Counted from the first letter of the stretch, positions 1,228 to 56,968 are shown. The stretch is 64,000 nucleotides of DNA from an uncultured Thermomicrobiales bacterium (GCA_964577155.1 CAZNYB010000001.1:3250-67249); one strand, 5' to 3'. The notes: generated by a model not told the origin, from the letters alone. Numbers and translations are program-made.

Positions 1228-4200
1228 ATGGATCCAAGACTACTTGAGTCGTTGAAGTGGCGCAGTATCGGTCCGCACCGGGGTGGCAGAGTGATTACTG
1301 TCGCCGGTCACCCGACCGAGAAAGCGACCTTCTACTTTGGCGCCTGCGCTGGCGGTGTCTGGAAGACGACGAACGGCGGTTCCCACTGGCGCAACATTAG
1401 CGATGGCTTCTTTCAGACGTCCGCTATCGGAGCGCTGGCAATTGCCCCATCCGACCCGAACGTTATCTATGCTGGAACCGGCGAGGTGACGATTCGCAGC
1501 AATGTCTCGCATGGTGACGGTGTCTACCGATCCACCGATGGCGGACGAACCTGGCGCAATATGGGTCTGGCAGAAACTCGCCACATCGGCGACATCATCG
1601 TTCACCCGGACGATGCCAATACGGTCTATGTCGCGGCGTTCGGCGACGCCTTCAGCACAAATCCCGAGCGTGGTGTCTACCGCTCCACTGACGGTGGTGA
1701 AAGCTGGGAGCTGGTGCTCTTCAAGAGCGACCGGGCCGGGGCGGTTGACCTGGCAATGGATCTCACGAACCCGCGCATTCTCTTCGCTTCGATCTATCAG
1801 GCGCGCCGCTACCCGCACTCCATCGAGAGCGGTGGGGAAGATAGCGGTCTCTGGCGTTCCTTCGATGGCGGCGAGAGCTGGGAGGAGATAACCCGGAACA
1901 GTGCATTACCCCAGGGCGTGATCGGCAAGATCGGCATTGCCACGTCACCGGCAAGACCGGGTCGGATCTGGGCGGTCGTCGAAGCCGAGGACGGCGCTAC
2001 CTTCCGCTCGGATGACTATGGCGATACCTGGATCCGGCTGGCCGAGGATTCAGCGCTGCGTCGCCGGCCGTTCTACTACATGCACCTGATCGCTGATCCG
2101 AGCGACCCGGACACGGTCTGGAATATGAACCTGAGTTGCTGGAAGTCGATTGACGGCGGCGCAACCTTTTCGACGATCGATACACCTCACGGCGACAACC
2201 ACGCGCTCTGGATCGATCCTGAAGATTCCGATCGGATGATCCAGGGGAACGACGGTGGCGCCAATGTCTCCTTCGACGGCGGTCGCACCTGGTCGACAAT
2301 TCTCAACCAGCCTACGGCGCAGTTCTACCATGTCATCGCCGACGATCAAGTTCCCTATAATGTCTATGGCTCACAACAGGACAACTGGGCGATGCGACTG
2401 CCGAGCATCAGCTTTGAAGGCGCAATCACCTGGAAAGACTACGTCGAACCAGGCGGCGGGGAATCGGGACATATCGCTGTCAAGCCGACGCCTCCCTACA
2501 CCGTCTACGGCGGTGGAATCGGAACTGGTCCTGGCGATGGCCGGTTGCTGGCCTGGAACCCGGATACCCGGCAGATCCGCAATGTCACCGTCTGGCCGGA
2601 GACGTTTGGCTACGGCGCTCACCGGCAGAAGTACCGCTTTCACTGGACCTTCCCGACTGAGGTATCGCCACATAATCCTGAAGCGGTCTATGTCTGCTCA
2701 CAGTTCGTTCACCGTTCAACCGACGAAGGAGCAAGCTGGGAGATTATCAGTCCGGATCTGACCCGCAACGATCCGACCAAGCTGGAAGGATCTGGCGGAC
2801 CGATTACGCCGGAACGCGGTGCCGCGGAGATGTACTGCACGATCTTTGCCTTCAAGGAATCGCCACACCGGCAAGGGTTGTTCTGGGCTGGTAGCGATGA
2901 TGGGCTGGTGCATATCTCCCGCGACGGCGGCGCTAACTGGACCAACATCACCCCACCGGATATGCCGGAGTGGGGCAAGGTCTCGATTCTCGAACTCTCG
3001 GCGTTCGACGAAGGCACCGCCTACCTGGCAGTCATCCGCTATATGCTCGGCGACCGGACTCCGTATATCTTCAAGACAAGTGATTTTGGCGAGACCTGGG
3101 AATCAATCGGCAGCGGAATACCCGACGGTGAATTTGTGCGGGTGGTCCGGGAGGACCCGAACCGGCAGGGGTTGCTCTACGCCGGCACAGAAACCGGTCT
3201 GTACATCTCCTTCGATGATGGCGGATCGTGGCAGCGATTTCAGGGTAATCTGCCGGTCTGCCCGATTCACGATATCGTCGTCAAAGACACCGATCTCATC
3301 GCCGGAACCCATGGCCGCTCGTTCTGGATTCTGGATGACCTGACACCTCTGCACCAGATGGCCGACGACATCGCCGCTGAGTCGATGCACCTCTTTGCGC
3401 CAAGAGATACCGTTCGCTTCAAACTCTACGGCCGCATGTTTGACCGCAAAGAACCGAAGCCAGCTACCAACTACCAGATGATTGGACCCGTCACGGTTGC
3501 GTTGGATCCGGTGAAGACGCCAATGGGAACCTACGAGCCAGCCTACCTTGACGCGGGGGCTAACCCGCCTGATGGAGTGATCGTCCACTACTGGTTGGCT
3601 GAATCTCCATCTGGTGAGGTTTCATTGACCTTCCTCGACAACGATGGACATGCGATCCGAACCGTTACCAGTGCTCAGGAGCAAGCGCCGCGCGTTCCTG
3701 CCAAAGCCGGAGCAAACCGTTTCGTCTGGGACATGCGCTACGATCAGGCTGTGGCCTGGACCGGCGGCAACGATGGGCTGGCTGACAATCTGCCGCCGAA
3801 GGCAACGCCAGGTCCGTATCAGGTCCAGCTTGACGTAGATGGAACTTCACAGACGCAGTCGTTTGCGATTCTTCCGGACCCGAGACTGTCGGTTACCCAG
3901 GCGGATCTGGAATCTCAGCGTGATCTCAAGCTAGCTATGCGCAACAGGATCTCCGAGATCCACGAAGCTGCCAACAGCATCGCCGCAGTTACCTCACAGA
4001 TTGACCAGTGGCTTGACCGGGCCGGTACCTCGGACGAAGTCCGTGATGCCGGCGTTGCCTTGCGTGAGAAAATGGCGGAGATCGAAGGCGTTTTAGTGCA
4101 AACCGACCCTGATGGACGAAAACGTGGTCCGCAGCCGATGGCGAACCGGCTCATCACGATGTCGACCATGCTCGACGAAGGAGACTATGCGCCGACGGCA

Positions 4201-7463: not shown

Positions 7464-8681
7464 GTGAATACTCCGGCTGTTGATGCTCAAGAATCCGGAA
7501 TGAGGTCTTCGCAGCGGACCGTTGCCCTGCAATCGGCTGCGCTAGTCGGGATGCAGGAGCGCGCTACGAAGCTACTGGAGCAGGGTCGCCAGCTCTACCC
7601 GCTTGTCCTGGGTGAATCCGACCTGCCGACGCCGAGGCACATCGTCGAGGCTGGGCAACGAGCGTTGGCTGATGGGTATACCCGATATCCGCCAGGGTTG
7701 GGGTATCCCGAACTGCGAGAAGCGATTGCCCGGAAGGTGCAATACGAGAATCAGTTTTCAATCGATTCGGCAACTCAGGTGTTTGTGACGAACGGTAGCG
7801 GACTCGGTATCTACCTGGCGCTCATCTGTATGACTGATCCCGGCGATGAGGTCATGGTCAGCGGTCCGACCTATGGACCATTCCTCGATGCCATCGAGCT
7901 GGCCGGCGCTAAACCAGTGTTTGCGCGCCAATACGCGGATTCAACCGGGCAGTTGCGCTGGGATCCGGAGATCCTGGCATCAGTTGTCTCCAGACGCAGC
8001 AAAGCCATCATGATCAACACACCGTCCGCGCCGACCGGCACGGTGATGGCTGCGGAAGAACTTACCATGCTGGGTAGGTTTGCCATTGACCATGATCTGG
8101 GGATCATCTCGGACGAGGTGTTCGAGCACCTGCTCTTCGACGATCGCCAACACCTGAGCATCGCGGCGCTGGACTCCGGGTTTGCCCGGCGAACCGTTAC
8201 CGTCTTCAGCTTTTCGAAGAGCTACGCGATGACCGGTTGGCGGCTTGGCTACAACGTTGGCCCGGCATCACTGATAGCGGCTATGGAACGCGCTTCGCTG
8301 GCTTTTGGCCGTCCGGCGGCAGCCTTCACCCAGATTGCTGGTATTCAGGCATTGCTCGGTCCGCAGGACTTCATACCTTTAATGGTTCGGCACTACACCC
8401 AACGCCGAAACCTCATCGACGCCGAACTGGCTTCACTTCCAAACGTCGGCCGGGTGACGCCCGAGGGTTCGTTCTACTATTTTCTGGACTTCTCCGCGTA
8501 CGGAAACGACAGCCGGGAAATTGCGGAAGAGTTGCTGGAACGCTCCGGCGTGATCCTGACACCTGGAACCTTTTACGGTCCAGCCGGGCAGGGCTGGCTG
8601 CGGCTTTCCTTCGCCGGCGACGAGCAAACGATCTTGAGCGGCCTCGAACAGTTGCGAGTTGCTCTCGAATCCTGGCAATGA
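7464..8681 (+). CDS. Class I/II pyridoxal-phosphate aminotransferase (aspartate/aromatic aminotransferase-like)
   Basis: Family layout: GESDLPTP near the N-terminus, an NTPSAPTG block, and the PLP-lysine motif SFSKSYAMTGWRLGY. AGGAG lies ~9 nt upstream of the GTG. An alternative ATG start is at 7500. Confidence 0.8.
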   Translation: MNTPAVDAQESGMRSSQRTVALQSAALVGMQERATKLLEQGRQLYPLVLGESDLPTPRHIVEAGQRALADGYTRYPPGLGYPELREAIARKVQYENQFSIDSATQVFVTNGSGLGIYLALICMTDPGDEVMVSGPTYGPFLDAIELAGAKPVFARQYADSTGQLRWDPEILASVVSRRSKAIMINTPSAPTGTVMAAEELTMLGRFAIDHDLGIISDEVFEHLLFDDRQHLSIAALDSGFARRTVTVFSFSKSYAMTGWRLGYNVGPASLIAAMERASLAFGRPAAAFTQIAGIQALLGPQDFIPLMVRHYTQRRNLIDAELASLPNVGRVTPEGSFYYFLDFSAYGNDSREIAEELLERSGVILTPGTFYGPAGQGWLRLSFAGDEQTILSGLEQLRVALESWQ

Positions 8682-11842: not shown

Positions 11843-13400
11843 TGGCTGTTGCTACCCTCTCCCGTTCCTGATCGCGAAGCACTCTGCGAAGGATTTTCCC
11901 GGAAGCTGCTTTCGGGATAACGTCGACGAATTCGACCATTCTGATGCGTTTTTGCGGGGAGACCTGTTCAGCCACGTAGGCCATGATCTCTTCTTGAGAG
12001 ATCTCGTCCGCCAGGACGCAATAGGCTTTCGGCACTTCGCCATGTTCGTCCGAGGGGCTACCAATAACTGCGGCGTCGGCTATCTTTGGATGCGCGGTCA
12101 GGATGCCTTCCAGCTCGGCAGGCGCAACTTGATAGGCGTTGTATTTAATGAGCTCTTTCAGCCGGTCGGTGATATAGAGGAACCCGTCCTGGTCAATTCG
12201 CCCGATGTCGCCAGTCCGCAGCCAGCCATCATCGGTAATGGTTTCGGCGGTTGCCTGTGGCTGGTTGAGGTATCCCTTCATCACCTGAGGTCCACGGACC
12301 CAGAGTTCGCCTTCTTCATTTGCTCCCAGCGGCGCCAGCGTGTCGATATCGACGATCATGCATTCGGTATTCGGGATGGCTGGTCCTACGGAGCCGACGT
12401 TTGAGACATTGTCCGGCATCAAGTGGGTGACCGGGCTGAGTTCGGTCATGCCGTAGGCTTGCTTCACCGGGACGTTCAGCCGCTTGCTGGCCGTCTGCGC
12501 GGTCGCAACGCCAATCGGCGCGGCTGCCGACAACACAACCTGCAGGTGGGAAAGATCGTAATTGTCAACGATCGGGTGGTGAGCGAGACCGAGGACAATT
12601 GGCGGCACCAGATAGGCTCGCGTTACTTTGTAATCCTGAAGAATACGCAGGAAATGCTCCATATCGAATCGTGGCATGGTCACCACACAGGCGCCTTGAT
12701 AAATCGAGAGATGCAAGAAAATCATCATGCCGTAGATGTGGTAAAGCGGCAGGATGCCGACCAGGACGTCTTCTTCACGAAAGGGTTCGGCAACGATCGT
12801 CTGACTGGTATTGCAAACAAGATTCCGGTGGGTGAGCATAACTCCTTTCGGGAGGCCGGTGGTGCCACTCGAATATGGCAGCACGGCGACGTCGTCTCCG
12901 GAAATGTCTACCTCCGGTGGATCGTTGTTAGACTCCAGATCCGTAAATGGCGTTGCCCCTTCAGTTTCTCCAAACACGAATATTTCTTCAACTCTGGTTC
13001 CCTTAGCAGCCACAATGGAAATCTCAACGAACAGGGGATCGGTGATCAGGAATCTGGCGTTGGCGTCAATCAGCTGGTGGTTGAGTTCGGATGCCGTATA
13101 GAGCGGGTTAGCCGTGGTGACAATGCCGCCGAGCTTCAATGCTGCGAAGTAGGCAATCGGCCACTCGATTCGGTTCGGGCTGAAAATACAAACAACATCC
13201 CCTTTGCCGAATCCTCGCTCCGAGAGGCCGGCAGCTGTGCGATCAATACGGTTCGCAAGGTCTACATAGGACAGCCTTTCGCCTGTCATTCCGTCGATGA
13301 AGGCGGGTTTTTCACCTCGTGAGCGGACCTTCTCCAGAATAAATTCTGGCTGTGAAACCTCTGGAAAGGTGATGTCCTGGTAGGGACTCTGAACGATCAC
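11835..13400 (-). CDS. AMP-dependent synthetase/ligase (acyl-CoA or 4-coumarate-CoA ligase-like)
   Basis: AMP-binding signature LPYSSGTTGLPKGVMLTHRNL, a GELWVRGPQVMKGY block, TGDIGRIDQDGFLYITDRLKELIK and a terminal K in PKAASGKILRR. Confidence 0.85.
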
Positions 13401-52422: not shown

Positions 52423-53448
52423 ATGAACGACATTACCCGCCACGATCGAGCAGTAGGAGCGATGATGGGTGTTTTTGTCGGTGATGCCCTGGGCCTTGGC
52501 TGCCACTGGTATTACAACACCGATAACCTGCAAGCCGAATATGGTCCCTGGGTTGATAACTATCGGGACAACAGCCCTGAACGCACCGACACGTTCGGCT
52601 ATATTGCTAAATACCGCTACGATCTTGGTTTGAGAGCCGGAGACCTCTCGCAGACCGGCCAGTTGAACGCCCTGTTGCTCGAATCAGTTGCCGAGCAAGC
52701 GGGGTATGACGAGGTAGATTTCACCGCCAGACTTGATGCATTTTTTGAATCTCTGGATGGCAGTGATCTCAGCGGGCGGTTTAGTGACTGGGCCGTTCGG
52801 GACACCTGGCGACACCGGCAGCTTGGCATGGCTTGGCATGAGGCTGGAAGTCTGGCGGACACCTCGGAGGCGGCACAACGAGCTGTCATTCTGGCTGCCA
52901 GGTACGCCGGGAACTACCATGAACTTGGCCGTCTTGCGCATAGCAATATCCGATTGACGCACCGTGATCGCTACGTTGCCGGCTGTTCACTAACTTTTGC
53001 GCTCGCAGTCGCCCTTCTGATCAATGGCATTTCCTGCCGCGATGTTGGAAATGAGTCAGGTCGACTGTTTCGCGACCCGACATTGTCACCGATGCTGGCG
53101 TCATTTGATGTTTCCCATCAGGTTGGCAACGGCTCCACCGGATGGCCGGAAGTTGACGTGGATCCGCGCGATGTCTGCAAGATCTACGGACTAGCATGTA
53201 CCCTCGGGTTCATGGCGCCTGCGGCCTACTATCTCATTCATCGATTCCCGGATGATTTCGAGTCAGCAGTCCTGTACGCGGTAAACGCGGGCGGAAACAA
53301 CATGGCGCGCGCCGCACTTACCGGAGCGCTATCAGGCGCGCTGGTAGGAGTTCAGGGTATACCTGAGCGATTCATAGCTGGTCTTGAAGACTCAGACCGG
53401 CTGCTGCAATTGGCCAAGGCCGTGGCAGTGGCTGCTGAAGAGGGATAA
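52423..53448 (+). CDS. ADP-ribosylglycohydrolase family protein
   Basis: The N-terminal DRAVGAMMGVFVGDALG and the C-terminal ..AVNAGGNNMARAALTGALSGA.. are typical of the DraG/ARH family. Confidence 0.75.
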   Translation: MNDITRHDRAVGAMMGVFVGDALGLGCHWYYNTDNLQAEYGPWVDNYRDNSPERTDTFGYIAKYRYDLGLRAGDLSQTGQLNALLLESVAEQAGYDEVDFTARLDAFFESLDGSDLSGRFSDWAVRDTWRHRQLGMAWHEAGSLADTSEAAQRAVILAARYAGNYHELGRLAHSNIRLTHRDRYVAGCSLTFALAVALLINGISCRDVGNESGRLFRDPTLSPMLASFDVSHQVGNGSTGWPEVDVDPRDVCKIYGLACTLGFMAPAAYYLIHRFPDDFESAVLYAVNAGGNNMARAALTGALSGALVGVQGIPERFIAGLEDSDRLLQLAKAVAVAAEEG

Positions 53449-53469
53449 AAGCTAGCCCGGATTATTCAC

Positions 53470-53922
53470 GGATGGTCGGGATGGGCGGCGAGCAGGAGCC
53501 AGAGTGGTTGTCCAGGATGAGAGCTGGCGAGGCGGAACCGGCGACCGGCCACAGGCGTGATCCATCACTCGGACCAGGGCAGCCAGTGCACCTCACTCGT
53601 CTTTGGCAAGCACTGTCAACGAGCCGGGATCGTCCCGTCGTGGGGGCGCGGGGGATTGCTACGACAACGCCATCACCGAGGCCTTCTTCGCGACCCTGGA
53701 GTGCGAATTGCTGCAACAGCATCGGTTTCGCACGCATACCGAAGCACGGTCGGCGCTCTTCGACTACATCGAAGGGTTCTACAACCCCCATCGCCGCCAC
53801 TCCGCCCTCGGCTATCGTTCGCCAGCTGCCTGCGAGCAGACCATTGACCTGACCGTCGCCGCATGAAAGGAGTTATCCTGATTAACCAGTGATGAGTTGT
53901 CCACTAAAGCGGGGTAACTCCA
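53470..53922 (+). pseudogene. IS3-family transposase (OrfB, rve/DDE integrase core) 3' remnant with frameshifts, plus a putative right terminal IR
   Basis: Fragments lie in different frames: ..SGWAASRS.. / ..ELARRNRRPATGVIHHSDQGSQCTS...GIVPS.G / ..GDCYDNAITEAFFATLECELL...FRTHTEARSALFDYIEGFYNPHRRHSALGYRSP... The N-terminal half (OrfA and the start of OrfB) is absent. The sequence ending ..GTCCACTAAAGCGGGGTAACTCCA at 53922 is a plausible IR ending in CA. Confidence 0.8.
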
Positions 53923-54216
53923 CCGCTTGAGCCGGTCGGTGCGCACGGCGGGGGTGGCCCGTTCGGCGACCAGCCGGGCTGGCAGGCGGGCTTTGGCGCT
54001 GAGCCGGATCGTTCTCAACAACAGCGCACTGGGGTAGATCGTGTACTCCCGGATCTCTTCATAGAAGAGCCAGATTCCGTTGGCAACGAGCCAGACATAG
54101 ATCCAGAATCCGAAGTTGCGAAGCTGGAAGAACTTGACCGGATAGCTCCAACCCGACTCGGCCAGTGTGTTGGATCGCTCTTCGGGCACACCAGTAGCGC
54201 TCATGGCTGCAACCAA
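53923..54216 (-). pseudogene. N-terminal fragment of a membrane protein gene, apparently truncated at the IS3 remnant
   Basis: The ORF 53812..54216 encodes a plausible TM start (FGFWIYVWLVANGIWLFYEEI...) and then reads into IS-derived sequence beyond ~53922. Confidence 0.35.
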
Positions 54217-54551
54217 ATCTCGGTGAATCGAATTCTGTTGATCATGTCTGCAATCTGCTGGGTTGTGCCTCGACTGACATTCGGTGGGTCCTCCACGTCG
54301 ACCTCGACGCCTTCATAGGTGAATGCGAACAGTCCGCTACTCGTTTCGACGCCAAACACTTCCGTCCCGACGCCGGTCACTCCCTGCGGCAGGGTTACCG
54401 AGAGCGTCCCGGCTTCGAACTCGATATCGTCACGCTGGTCACTCAGCTGCTGTACCAGCTCCTCGGAGATGTCATCAAAACGGCCTGTCTTGATGTTAAA
54501 GGTGACGCCCTCGCTAAAGACGGTTACGTTACCTCCTTCTACGTTCGCCAT
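54201..54551 (-). CDS. Hypothetical protein; possibly the 3' part of a larger gene interrupted by an in-frame TAG
   Basis: GAAGG lies 7 nt upstream of the ATG at 54551. The same frame stays open upstream of a TAG at 54570-54572 and encodes WPGLAVLGIALLWAGIMPAINEAIDGDAIEAGTVVDAGAGVEFTPAAG. Confidence 0.4.
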   Translation of the reverse strand: MANVEGGNVTVFSEGVTFNIKTGRFDDISEELVQQLSDQRDDIEFEAGTLSVTLPQGVTGVGTEVFGVETSSGLFAFTYEGVEVDVEDPPNVSRGTTQQIADMINRIRFTEIWLQP

Positions 54552-54813
54552 CGGCACGCCTTCGTATAGCTAACCTGCTGCCGGCGTGAACTCAACCCCG
54601 GCTCCGGCGTCAACGACCGTGCCAGCTTCGATGGCATCTCCATCGATGGCCTCGTTGATTGCCGGCATGATGCCTGCCCAGAGCAGGGCGATCCCAAGGA
54701 CGGCCAGTCCAGGCCAAATGGTTCAGCGATCAAGCCCCATGAAACGTCGTTCAACCGGCGGCCGATCCCCGATTTCCCACGCTTGCACCGTCAGTTCCAA
54801 TTCTTTCGGGTTA

Positions 54814-55791
54814 TTACGATCCAGTCTGTGCCAGTTCGGCTTGTGCGGCCTGGTCGACAGTTACGTCCGCCTTTGCCGCTAGCTCCCGGCGCATATAGAC
54901 GAAGGCGAGCAGCGCGGCGACGCCCCAGACAGTGGTCGAAATGATGCTACCCTCCGGGCCGAAATCTCCGCCACTCAGCAGATCTGTGGCATTCGACGTC
55001 TGTGCCAGCGAGACGATCGAATTCTCTTTGGTGGGGTTGCCGCTGACATCCAGCCCGAGGACATTCCCCTGGGCCCAGTTCCAGGCCGCGTGGATGCCGC
55101 AGACGAGCCAGAGCGATCCCTGTCCAAGCGCGATGAAGGTCGCGAAGAGCGCGAACAGCACCAGGTTGATGAGCACGAGCGGCTGGAATCCGCCTTCGTT
55201 CCCCAGATGGAGACTCATGAAAAGCAATCCTGGCAATGCGACGGCGAGCCAACCCGGGAGCTGAAGCGCTCCCACCTGTAGCTGGTAGCCGCGGTTGGCT
55301 GTTTCTTCGGTGGATCCCTGGATGATCCAGACGCCGAGCAGCAGGATGACCGGGATGAGTGCCGATGCGCCGCTGGTGACGCCCTCAGGCGCATCCACCC
55401 GCTCGTACTGGCCAAAGGCGATCGTCAGGAGGGTCACCGCAGCCATCATCAAAGCCCCGATGAGGAGACCCAGCCCGAAGCGCTGGAGGCCACCGGGGCC
55501 GATGAACCCGATCGTCCGACCCGGCCGCCGTTCTTTGTAGGCAACCCACATCACGAGCAATACAAACGTCACGAGCCAGGCAACGCCCTCGACAATCTGA
55601 GCCGTCGCCGACCCATCGCCGTAGTCGAGGATCGCGTCCATGCCCGGAATGATGATCGAGCCGGGAACAACGAAGCAGGCGACTGAGACGATGTAGGCCA
55701 GCCACCAGCGTGTCGGCCGTTCTGCTCCCGTCGCAGCCTGGACTAGCTCGGATCTCCGAACGATTGACTCAGCAGCTCGATCTTGATTCAT
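54814..55791 (-). CDS. CPBP-family (CAAX/Abi-like) intramembrane metalloprotease
   Basis: Polytopic membrane protein with all three family motifs: EETANR (EExxxR), FMSLH (FxxxH) and HAAWN (HxxxN). Confidence 0.8.
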   Translation of the reverse strand: MNQDRAAESIVRRSELVQAATGAERPTRWWLAYIVSVACFVVPGSIIIPGMDAILDYGDGSATAQIVEGVAWLVTFVLLVMWVAYKERRPGRTIGFIGPGGLQRFGLGLLIGALMMAAVTLLTIAFGQYERVDAPEGVTSGASALIPVILLLGVWIIQGSTEETANRGYQLQVGALQLPGWLAVALPGLLFMSLHLGNEGGFQPLVLINLVLFALFATFIALGQGSLWLVCGIHAAWNWAQGNVLGLDVSGNPTKENSIVSLAQTSNATDLLSGGDFGPEGSIISTTVWGVAALLAFVYMRRELAAKADVTVDQAAQAELAQTGS

Positions 55792-55846
55792 GGGTTGTAG
55801 CCCTTTCCATAGTCCGTTAGATCGGCAGAGTGAGGGTCGGTTGAGT

Positions 55847-55884
55847 CGCGAAAAACTCGACTTTACGCGAAAAACTCGACTTTA
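55847..55884. repeat. Perfect 19-bp tandem duplication (CGCGAAAAACTCGACTTTA x2) 56-93 nt upstream of the CPBP protease start
   Basis: Read directly: 55847-55865 is identical to 55866-55884. On the gene strand the units read TAAAGTCGAGTTTTTCGCG. Confidence 0.95.
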
Positions 55885-56055
55885 TATGCATGGGGAGATT
55901 AACGGTGAGTCCGTACTAGTGTCAAGCCCGAGGTCTATGGGAAATCGTTCTTGGCCATGACGCCACGTCGCGGACTCCACAGGGGCGTGCCAGTTCCAGC
56001 CAGGAACGGTCGGGGGCGTCAATCTCTGTGCGGCTAGGCTGGCTCTTCCCTGGGC

Positions 56056-56467
56056 TCACCAGATTCCTGTTGGTCTGCATTGGCCAACCGCTGCTCGTGG
56101 AGTGGCCGGTAGCGGTCGTAGGTCGAATGTTTCCTCATCGACGAGACTCCCCGTCACTATCGTGTCGATCGAATTTTCGAGACTGGAGAAGCGGATCGTG
56201 GCGCAACGTCGTAGCGTCGTTCTGGTCAGGATACCCGCAGGCAACCTGGAAGACGCGTTGGCGCATCAACGAGGTCTGCGGGTGGCGCACCGGACCGCTG
56301 AGCCACTCCGGGATGACCGCCGCCATGGCCGCACAGATCCCGACCGCATCCCCGGCTTCAGCCAACCAGAGCAGGCCACCATCACTGGTCAGCTGCTCGA
56401 GGTCAAAGCGGGCTTCGATGGTCCCGGATGGGCGGGCAAAGGTCGCCGATGGTGTGGCAGACTGCAT
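56056..56467 (-). pseudogene. IS1380-family transposase, N-terminal fragment (frameshifted and truncated)
   Basis: The first frame gives ..IEARFDLEQLTSDGGLLWLAEAGDAVG...LMRQRVFQVACGYPDQNDATTLRHDPLL, the typical IS1380/DDE_Tnp_1_4 N-terminus. The match continues after a frameshift as ..FSSLENSIDTIVTGSLVDEE.. and is then lost near 56056. Confidence 0.7.
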
Positions 56468-56554
56468 GAGATGACACCTCGTGGGCTGGATTCGATTTGC
56501 TACCTACACCCATACCAGAGAGGTGTCTTTCTGTCACCCTATGAATAATCCGGG

Positions 56555-56968
56555 CTAGGAGTGCCGAATTCGTTCCGGGGTAAGAACAAGTCGCACAAAG
56601 CTGGTTGCGACCTCTCGCCACTCCTCAAGCGTCGCAGCCCGTTCAGGATTCGACAGATCCCAGTATTTGTGAGCCAGACGCTCGGCGAGCTCAAATGCGC
56701 CATCCTGGTGAACGGTAAGGATGCCGTCAACGGCGACCCAGTACTCCGGCTCTTGCAGCGTATTCGACACCATCAGTGACGCATAGGGATTGGATTGAGT
56801 CCGGCGGACCTTTACAGCGTTTTGTGCGCTAAACATCTGGATCGTCTCGCCATCCCACTCGTACCAGATAGGGATGGAGACGGGCCACATTGCACCGGAA
56901 GATGTTGAGAAAACGCCAATTCGGGTATCTCGCAAATAGCTGTCGTTTTTAGCGGTCATGAATGGCAA
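56555..56968 (-). CDS. Pyridoxamine 5'-phosphate oxidase (PPOX) family / F420- or FMN-binding split-barrel protein
   Basis: ~135 aa with ..RIGVFSTSSGAMWPVSIPIWYEWDGETIQMFS...NPYASLMV.. typical of the PPOX split-barrel family. Its TAG stop (56555-56557) lies inside the CTAG flank of the IR-bounded element. Confidence 0.65.
   Translation of the reverse strand: MPFMTAKNDSYLRDTRIGVFSTSSGAMWPVSIPIWYEWDGETIQMFSAQNAVKVRRTQSNPYASLMVSNTLQEPEYWVAVDGILTVHQDGAFELAERLAHKYWDLSNPERAATLEEWREVATSFVRLVLTPERIRHS

Follow-up and report, generated by a model that had tools for sequence, protein, structure and literature searches.

Features of the locus

A 3.1-kb segment of mixed content lies between two convergent genes in the window, i.e. 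the whole 64-kb stretch of DNA that was analysed. The gene on its left encodes an ADP-ribosylglycohydrolase (52423-53448, plus strand), whose TAA stop ends 3 nt before a CTAG begins, and the gene on its right encodes a PNPOx-like protein (56555-56968, minus strand). Neither of the two is disrupted by the segment. Between the two CTAG flanks we found remnants of transposase genes from two insertion sequence (IS) families, a truncated ORF, a pseudogene, an intact gene for a CPBP protease and a non-coding stretch with a short tandem repeat (Table 1).

Table 1. Coordinates of the element, its parts and its flanks, in window positions.
Feature	Position	Strand	Description
Left CTAG flank	53452-53455		presumed target-site copy; CTAG also at both ends of the L005 and L006 elements
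IS1380 3' remnant	53456-53538	-	13-nt right-end repeat (53456-53468) and last ~27 transposase codons (..RLASSHPGQPLWLLLAAHPDHP, then stop)
IS3-family 3' fragment	53539-53922	+	last ~100 transposase codons, one frameshift near 53641, stop at 53864-53866
5' part of an ORF	53923-54216	-	98 codons, cut off by the IS3 end; GC3 0.776
Pseudogene	54201-54740	-	~179 codons; N-terminal hydrophobic (membrane-anchor-like) stretch in the translation
CPBP protease gene	54814-55791	-	CPBP (Rce1-like, type II CAAX) intramembrane protease, 325 aa, intact; Pfam PF02517, E = 2.9e-12
Tandem repeat	55847-55884		perfect repeat of two 19-bp units (CGCGAAAAACTCGACTTTA) that lies 56-93 nt before the CPBP start codon
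Non-coding cargo stretch	55885-56183		unassigned; includes polymorphic patch 55940-56073
IS1380 5' remnant	56184-56554	-	13-nt left-end repeat (56542-56554), 87-nt leader measured from the outer end of that repeat, transposase codons 1-95
Right CTAG flank	56555-56558		CTA forms the stop codon (TAG) of the PNPOx-like gene

Terminal repeats and their flanks

The 17-nt inverted repeat that bounds the segment is, judged by sequence homology, a true pair of IS1380-family ends. Positions 53452-53468 (CTAGCCCGGATTATTCA) are the exact reverse complement of 56542-56558, and no other perfect 17-nt inverted pair exists in the 64-kb window. Such a pair is not beyond chance when it is judged without its context. 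Among 200 windows of 64 kb simulated with a Markov model, 15.5% contained one or more, and the mean was 0.25, near the ~0.1 per 64 kb that had been estimated from the sequence. The reality of the repeat rests instead on its homology to IS1380-family ends and on the IS similarity that continues inward from it. The 13-nt core CCCGGATTATTCA, together with CTAG flanks, is identical at both ends of IS1380-family elements in two Chloroflexia loci, L005 and L006, which were retrieved through protein similarity and not through their terminal sequences. From the right repeat, the DNA similarity to these two elements reaches about 370 bp inward, and from the left one about 81 bp.

These ends belong to a widespread type. 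CCCGGATTATTCA-type ends with CTAG are present in more than 120 metagenome contigs, among which the elements of 1.2-1.77 kb encode IS1380-type transposases. The 13-nt ends begin with CC and are identical to those of L005, L006, L073 and others encoding IS1380 transposases, and near-identical ends occur in named elements, i.e. CCCGGATTTCTCA in ISMaq4 and CCCGTCTTATTCA in ISMex4. The sequence-only reading of this DNA had proposed the inverted repeat, the CTAG at both ends and the IS1380-type termini starting with CC, and the comparisons bear out all of these proposals.

The simulated frequency is what could be said for a 17-nt match without biological meaning, produced by chance or by a chimeric assembly. 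We consider the probability of this explanation negligible and regard it as already refuted, since IS1380 relatives have ends identical to the repeats, homologous IS sequence (L005, L006, L073) lies inward of each repeat, and independent assemblies of four sequencing runs (SRR15635845, -46, -47 and -57) gave the same structure. The agreement of four independent assemblies makes misassembly unlikely.

The CTAG on both sides of the element, which is also seen in the relatives, may be a target-site duplication, of the 4-5 bp that the family makes, or a fixed target. This IS subgroup habitually inserts at CTAG, and matching flanks are hence expected for any two independent ends. The flanks are no proof of a single insertion, and on this point, for which they had been put forward, they are uninformative.

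Remnants of an IS1380 transposase

Inward of each repeat lies one end of an IS1380-type transposase gene. On the right, the open frame at 56135-56467 has 110 codons, the final 15 of which are unrelated to the IS1380 transposase, and its ATG at 56467 is 87 nt from the element end at 56554, inside the 75-90 nt given by the sequence-only reading. The fragment matches Pfam PF13701 (E = 6e-19) and positions 2-78 of 419 in the NCBIfam profile transpos_IS1380 (NF033539, E = 4e-16), scoring under the full-length cut-off because just 95 codons are left. Over these codons the identity to L006 and L005 is 58-67%, and the 5' remnant as DNA is 76% identical to L005 over 375 bp (blastn). The homology ends at 56168-56183 against all of ten IS1380 transposases and exactly at 56183 against eight of them. 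The transposase was therefore lost after codon 95 and not after the ~140 codons supposed earlier.

On the left, the 3' remnant is 82% identical to the 3' end of L005 over 85 bp (blastn). The transposases of L006, L073 and L127 match 53484-53546 in tblastn searches, about 20 C-terminal codons can be aligned with those of three relatives, and the TGA stop codon of the transposase is inside the right-end repeat as it is in the relatives. Elsewhere in the element, no alignment to any of the ten transposases was found. About 0.9 kb of the IS centre is gone, and 2.65 kb stands in its place, of which 0.4 kb is unassigned. An autonomous IS1380 element carries an intact transposase gene between its ends, whereas only codons 1-95 and the last ~27 are left here. 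We conclude that 53456-56554 is very probably a non-autonomous, gutted IS1380 derivative with a replaced centre, of the CTAG-inserting CCCGGATTATTCA subgroup.

The two remnants could also be what is left of a composite transposon, in which two IS1380 copies in the same orientation surrounded a larger island and two independent deletions removed their inner parts, so that one copy contributed its left end and the other its right end. The orientation of the remnants is compatible with it, and CTAG at both outer ends would be expected even with two independent insertions. A composite transposon has two IS copies around its cargo, whereas we see one 5' and one 3' remnant, with no inner IS ends or inner CTAG junctions left. 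Four events would be required, i.e. two insertions and two deletions, each deletion beginning within an IS and sparing exactly the outer end. The composition of the cargo is also unlike that of the host, arguing against native DNA trapped between two insertions. We consider such a decayed composite improbable.

DNA between the remnants

The IS3-family piece is a frameshifted fragment, as had been recognized from the sequence. It covers positions 271-304 and 306-368 of 369 of the NCBIfam profile transpos_IS3 (NF033516) in two frames, and the Pfam domains rve, rve_2 and rve_3 were detected in it. Its right terminal repeat occupies 53896-53922 and ends in ...ACTCCA; read as the reverse complement, TGGAGTTACCCCGCTTTAGTGGAC matches both repeats of the IS3 element in a Methylobacterium plasmid (L133). 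The rve-type transposase and the TG...CA terminal repeats of the IS3 family are thus both represented, in a non-functional fragment. Two details of the earlier description need to be changed: the piece is the last quarter of the transposase rather than its 3' half, and it does not abut the left repeat, since ~83 bp of the IS1380 3' end lie between them.

The next two reading frames have no recognizable family. The 134-aa ORF listed at 53812-54216 runs on into IS3 sequence, and its 98 codons outside the IS3 fragment have no Pfam or NCBIfam match. Neither has the pseudogene, in which a 116-118-aa ORF is still open at the 3' end. The sequence-only reading described it as interrupted by a TAG, which is present at codon 57, but there is a second in-frame stop, a TGA at codon 6.

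The CPBP protease gene, next to the pseudogene, is the sole intact gene in the inserted patch. It aligns end to end with seven homologues, with E162, E163, R167, F191, H195, H234 and N238 invariant; the PF02517 domain and the EExxxR, FxxxH and HxxxN motifs of CPBP proteases are all present, and the earlier description of the gene as intact holds. The closest homologue is 54% identical, and the 90% cluster of the protein consists of this single sequence. The homologues examined are in unrelated contexts without the downstream ORFs, and a blastn search of the cargo against plasmids gave no match.

The region upstream of the CPBP gene contains the perfect two-copy tandem repeat that had been noticed from the sequence. 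Each of its 19-bp units carries an imperfect palindrome, AAAgTCGAgTTT, and the repeat is identical across five assemblies. The stretch 55885-56183 has no Pfam match in any frame, no Rfam family and no hidden IS1380 remnant, and its RNA fold is not unusual (z-score -0.44). Scans for promoters and terminators found nothing above the shuffle expectation. Two population haplotypes differ in the patch 55940-56073 by 5 transitions and 1 indel. Hypermutation of this patch by a diversity-generating retroelement was considered and rejected, as all the changes are transitions and they are not A-specific.

The element is richer in GC than its surroundings, with 0.604 versus 0.545-0.548 in the flanks. GC3 is 0.745 in the CPBP gene and 0.768 in the IS1380 N-terminal fragment, and it ranges over 0.67-0.78 across the unit versus 0.545-0.616 in five flanking host genes. 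A GC content of 0.60 is also reached by other 1-kb stretches of the window, and the composition is only moderate evidence.

Copies, relatives and the empty site

The element was found once and in one context. A search of the window with the termini pattern returned the two element ends only, plus a chance-level match with 2 mismatches at 7465. The 64-kb window has no self-similarity to the element elsewhere and no second or full-length IS1380 that could be a partner transposase. The exact CPBP and IS1380-fragment proteins occur in one context only, in four runs. The 26-mer expected at an empty site, GAGGGATAAAAGCTAGGAGTGCCGAA, has 0 exact matches in the JGI metagenomes, and exact-protein look-ups of the PNPOx-like gene and P0033 gave the filled site or nothing. 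Homologues of the ADP-ribosylglycohydrolase are at most 61% identical, and the one examined, in a Thermomicrobiales locus (L010), is without synteny.

Relatives with the same ends include many forms other than complete insertion sequences. There are MITE-like elements of 129-282 bp with unrelated interiors and internal-deletion forms of 784 and 1225 bp, and in one case an IS630-type transposase lies between a pair of these ends. Since non-autonomous derivatives are common in the group, the termini alone seem sufficient for movement in trans. Our element, taken with its many MITE-like relatives, suggests that the CTAG-targeting subgroup readily yields non-autonomous derivatives.

Origin of the mosaic

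Both inner junctions of the IS1380 remnants are inside genes and not at IS termini, and the centre was therefore replaced by illegitimate recombination or break repair rather than by transposition. The patch itself has an earlier history, in which an IS3 element inserted into an ORF and just the last quarter of this IS3 was later carried along. With a GC3 of 0.67-0.78 in IS pieces and cargo alike, unlike the host, the mosaic was most likely built in a donor of higher GC. It then probably landed whole at a CTAG between the two convergent genes. The mover would have been a full-length IS1380 relative acting in trans, as for the mobile insertion cassettes and MITEs of the group, and the element would now be stranded, lacking a transposase. 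Transcription of the CPBP gene may start at the former transposase promoter, which would be upstream of it in the same orientation.

That the mosaic travelled as one unit belongs to what we infer in this scheme. One copy, one context, no partner transposase and no empty site count against it, and a cargo that is mostly junk fits a graveyard of nested fragments equally well. We therefore put the full reading, a gutted derivative that arrived as one unit moved in trans, slightly below an even chance. A stronger version would be a working IS1380-family mobile insertion cassette, carried to CTAG sites by full-length relatives that act in trans. It would spread a gene for a CPBP/Abi-type membrane protease from one Chloroflexota genome to another, with transcription from the transposase promoter that was kept. 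This version we consider unlikely.

An alternative hypothesis could be that the gutting took place at this site. A complete IS1380 would have inserted at the CTAG, and later repair of a break inside it would have lost ~0.9 kb and captured a 2.65-kb foreign fragment, e.g. from a plasmid or another island, so that the mosaic never moved and is a graveyard of nested fragments. This course requires the fewest events, and one internal event automatically preserves both ends; it is in line with the two non-transpositional inner junctions, with the single copy in one context, and with a cargo that is mostly dead (the IS3 fragment with its frameshift, the cut-off ORF and the two-stop pseudogene). Exchange with a paralogous copy at another place in the same genome could account for the polymorphisms clustered at 55940-56073. 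However, it requires two foreign arrivals, the IS and then the cargo, with the same unusually high GC3, and there is no complete IS1380 at the site or elsewhere in the window. We hold it to be a serious possibility, though clearly short of probable. The sequence-only reading had left the choice between a graveyard and a cargo-carrying unit; its two dead transposase fragments and intact CPBP gene stand, and the choice is narrowed but not decided.

We regard the segment as an ordinary mobile-element relic; it is no new system, mechanism or kind of element. As a gutted derivative, it is a concrete case of an IS1380-type element that swaps its transposase for other DNA and keeps ends that are still usable. 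Annotations of the region should treat as remnants the IS3 piece, the truncated ORF, the ORFs of 116 and 130 aa and the 110-aa 'transposase', and the CPBP gene is best read as horizontally acquired cargo and not as a core gene.

Comparison with known mobile elements

The closest known elements are the IS1380 elements of the ISMaq4, ISMex4 and ISAcr4 type and those in L005 and L006. They share with this element the 13-nt ends, the CTAG or TTAG flanks and the transposase stop inside the right-end repeat. They are roughly 1.4 kb long, whereas here ~0.9 kb is missing, no functional transposase is left and 2.65 kb of unrelated DNA is found instead.

Mobile insertion cassettes (MICs) were first described in Bacillus cereus. 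The relevant passages of PMC3281130 treat MICs and MITEs as non-autonomous elements that an IS transposase moves in trans, and no MIC that stems from an IS1380-family element is described in them. A search of full-text literature for links of IS1380 with CTAG, MITEs or mobile insertion cassettes found no directly relevant description. In structure our element resembles a MIC, having IS-type inverted repeats, target-site-like flanks, no transposase of its own and the CPBP gene as a passenger between the ends, and MITE-like relatives with the same ends are abundant. The signs of MIC movement, i.e. several copies, different contexts or an empty site, are absent from our single copy in one context. 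It also differs in that long stretches of subterminal IS sequence (371 and 83 bp) and the debris of a dead IS3 are still there, so that it looks like a recent accident and not a streamlined cassette.

ISEcp1 transposition units are an IS1380-family way of carrying non-IS genes. So are the transposable modules (TMos) of ISPme1 and IS1247a, according to the relevant passages of PMC3281130. In the ISEcp1 and ISPme1 units, one intact IS mobilises DNA beyond its right end, with a surrogate end of weak similarity as the boundary. In our element the cargo is between two true ends in place of the destroyed transposase, and the right-end repeat is still joined to the C-terminal codons of the transposase. 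We rejected ISEcp1-type one-ended mobilisation on this anatomy, with the cargo inside true ends and no intact IS. The analogy to ISEcp1 that had been drawn from the sequence thus gives way to a comparison with a mobile insertion cassette or a cargo-bearing MITE.

The locus is similar to IS graveyards in having fragments of two IS families and pseudogenes at an intergenic site. It differs from them in its perfectly kept outer ends and in inner junctions that are not IS-end junctions, except for the earlier insertion of IS3 into the truncated ORF.

Termini of the element

The ends of the element match the termini of the IS1380 family. Read in reverse complement, 56542-56558 equals CTAGCCCGGATTATTCA of 53452-53468 without a mismatch; the window holds no other perfect inverted pair of 17 nt. 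Of 200 Markov-simulated windows, 15.5% had one or more, so the repeat by itself is not significant and the context decides, in agreement with the sequence-only reading, which had held the repeat unconvincing without its positional context. A 110-aa ORF on the minus strand, at 56135-56467, is recognised by Pfam PF13701 and the NCBIfam model transpos_IS1380. Scanning the reference genomes by protein similarity, independently of the end sequences, we found two Chloroflexia MAG loci, L005 with a frameshifted transposase and L006 with an intact one of 465 aa. Both elements start with CTAG followed by CCCGGATTATTCATAGGTGACAG and finish with TGAATAATCCGGG followed by CTAG. The termini of ISMaq4 and ISMex4 read CCCGGATTTCTCA and CCCGTCTTATTCA, respectively, each preceded by CTAG. 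A metagenome scan with CTAG plus the terminus as the query gave at least 120 contigs; among the matches listed, the 1.2-1.77 kb elements with these ends encode typical IS1380 transposases, and the second end, left unconstrained by the search, is usually flanked by CTAG too. Clearly, then, IS1380 members with such termini exist (L005/L006, ISMaq4, ISMex4), whereas their absence would have refuted the sequence-only reading; judged by sequence, the repeat pair in the window is a pair of IS1380-family termini. Since CTAG is the habitual target, the identical CTAG flanks cannot show that both ends arrived jointly.

All 31 listed homologues of the IS1380 N-terminal fragment (P0002-P0032) are short (84-193 aa), probably because contigs end within them or the copies are frameshifted. 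This points to elements that frequently interrupt metagenome assemblies or have in many cases decayed.

Anatomy and inner junctions

About 0.9 kb of an IS of ~1.4 kb is gone, and 2.65 kb stands in its place. We mapped the IS1380 remnants by blastn and tblastn against L005, L006, the compared locus L073 and seven other transposases.

Features of the element, with third-position GC content (GC3) of its genes and of the host genes
Feature	Position	Strand	Content	GC3
IS1380 3' remnant	53456 to ~53538	minus	right-end repeat and last ~27 codons	
IS3 fragment	53539-53922	plus	IS3 transposase profile positions 271-368 of 369; one frameshift	
Truncated ORF	53923-54216	minus	first 98 codons, cut by IS3 end	0.776
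Pseudogene	54201-54740	minus	in-frame TGA and TAG stops	
CPBP gene	54814-55791	minus	full length, all conserved motifs	0.745
Tandem repeat	55847-55884		19 bp x2, perfect	
Stretch without assignment	55885-56183		cargo, non-coding	
IS1380 5' remnant	56184-56554	minus	left-end repeat, 87-nt leader (from the repeat's outer end) and codons 1-95	
IS1380 N-terminal fragment				0.768
Remnant 116-118-aa ORF				0.672
Five flanking host genes				0.545-0.616

The transposase alignments end at exactly 56183 in eight of the ten cases, the other two ending at 56168 and 56180; the transposase is thus lost after 95 codons and not after ~140 as first estimated. The TGA stop of the transposase sits within the right-end repeat, as in the relatives. 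This 3' remnant lies between the left repeat and the IS3 fragment, which had been thought to abut each other. With the ten transposases, blastn and tblastn gave no further IS1380 transposase similarity inside the element. Subterminal homology and four independent assemblies practically exclude a chance repeat or an assembly artefact.

At the left inner junction (~53537-53546) the IS1380 3' remnant runs into the interior of the IS3 gene, and at the right one (56183/56184) IS1380 codon 95 meets DNA without assignment. Neither is at an IS terminus, hence neither was produced by transposition; both are deletion or capture junctions, with microhomology of a few bases at most, not resolvable with references just 70-76% identical. 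Transposition accounts for just one junction within the element, the older IS3 insertion into the truncated ORF. There the IS3 retains a terminal repeat of its own that ends at 53922; the two terminal repeats of an IS3 from a Methylobacterium plasmid both match it.

In ISEcp1 units the IS stays intact and the DNA it mobilises lies beyond the right end. The transposable module (TMo) likewise has an intact IS with the carried DNA outside the right end (PMC3281130). Mobilisation of either type, the former one of two alternatives in the sequence-only reading, does not fit the element.

Non-autonomous relatives with the same ends

The IS group with these ends has many non-autonomous derivatives with unrelated interiors. 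Internal-deletion forms measure 784 and 1225 bp. MITE-like elements, 129-282 bp long, combine perfect CCCGGATTATTCA ends and CTAG flanks with unrelated interiors (L014, L036, e.g. 3730-3898, L039, L062 with three copies of a ~130-bp element, L072, L075, L086 and L089). At 3157-4860 of L012, IS1380-type ends with CTAG flanks surround a 1.7-kb segment whose sole long ORF is an IS630-type transposase (DDE_3 and HTH_32 domains), another instance of foreign DNA between IS1380 ends. The window element retains far more terminal sequence than its non-autonomous relatives. The abundance of these derivatives and the longer terminal sequence kept here both argue in favour of its ends being competent.

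Many metagenome contigs carry hairpins of 36-37 bp, often several each, made of just two IS1380-type ends, CCCGGATTATTCACG-N7-CGTGAATAATCCGGG (L019, L054, L063, L088 at 7707-7743 and 12331-12367, L095, L098, L106 and others). They usually have CTAG at one flank and CTTAC/GTAAG at the opposite one, and could represent minimal MITEs or else a REP-like repeat with the same ends as the IS.

Composition, insertion site and history

The GC content is 0.604 in the element versus 0.545-0.548 in the flanks. With 1-kb stretches elsewhere in the window reaching 0.60 too, this contrast is no more than moderate. The cargo and the IS pieces look alike in composition and unlike the host. The mosaic may have been put together in a donor of higher GC and have entered this site by a single insertion in trans. 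We give this history close to an even chance and rank it first because of the composition and the abundant trans-mobilised relatives. Less likely in our view, an IS already resident at the site lost its centre when a break was repaired and stray DNA was captured; this needs the fewest events, and most of the cargo is junk. A decayed composite transposon derived from two copies requires four events and is improbable.

The insertion site lies between two convergent genes, both undamaged. The stop of the left gene is 3 nt ahead of CTAG, and the TAG with which the PNPOx-like gene ends is supplied by the right CTAG, exactly as a single empty-site CTAG would supply it. The empty site itself (expected GAGGGATAAAAG-CTAG-GAGTGCCGAA) was not found by metagenome 26-mer search, flanking-gene homologues or exact-protein look-ups. 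The window has one copy of the element and no full-length IS1380 in its 64 kb. The CPBP and IS1380-fragment proteins have exact matches in this context only, in four runs. No match to CPBP of at least 90% identity is present in a protein database of 5.8 billion clusters (≈15 billion sequences), the next homologue being 54% identical and its contexts unrelated. Together with the empty-site searches, these results speak against actual movement of the element. Structurally it corresponds to a mobile insertion cassette. As an individual it was previously undescribed; its kind, a non-autonomous IS derivative (MIC or IS relic), is known. It is of use for annotation and as an illustration, and will not surprise a specialist.

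CPBP upstream region and a polymorphic patch

The tandem repeat sits 56-93 nt ahead of the CPBP start codon, and an imperfect palindrome, AAAgTCGAgTTT, is part of each 19-bp unit. Some 50 nt further upstream, the coding strand has a perfect TTGACA. The two could form a putative operator and promoter arrangement.

Two population haplotypes were observed at 55940-56073, in the non-coding cargo DNA without assignment, with the window and SRR15635857 on one side and SRR15635845-47 on the other. They differ by five transitions and one 1-base indel over 134 bp; the remaining ~14 kb of overlap has only three differences, an excess in the patch of roughly 40-fold. Recombination with a diverged paralogue over a short tract is one possible source of the patch.
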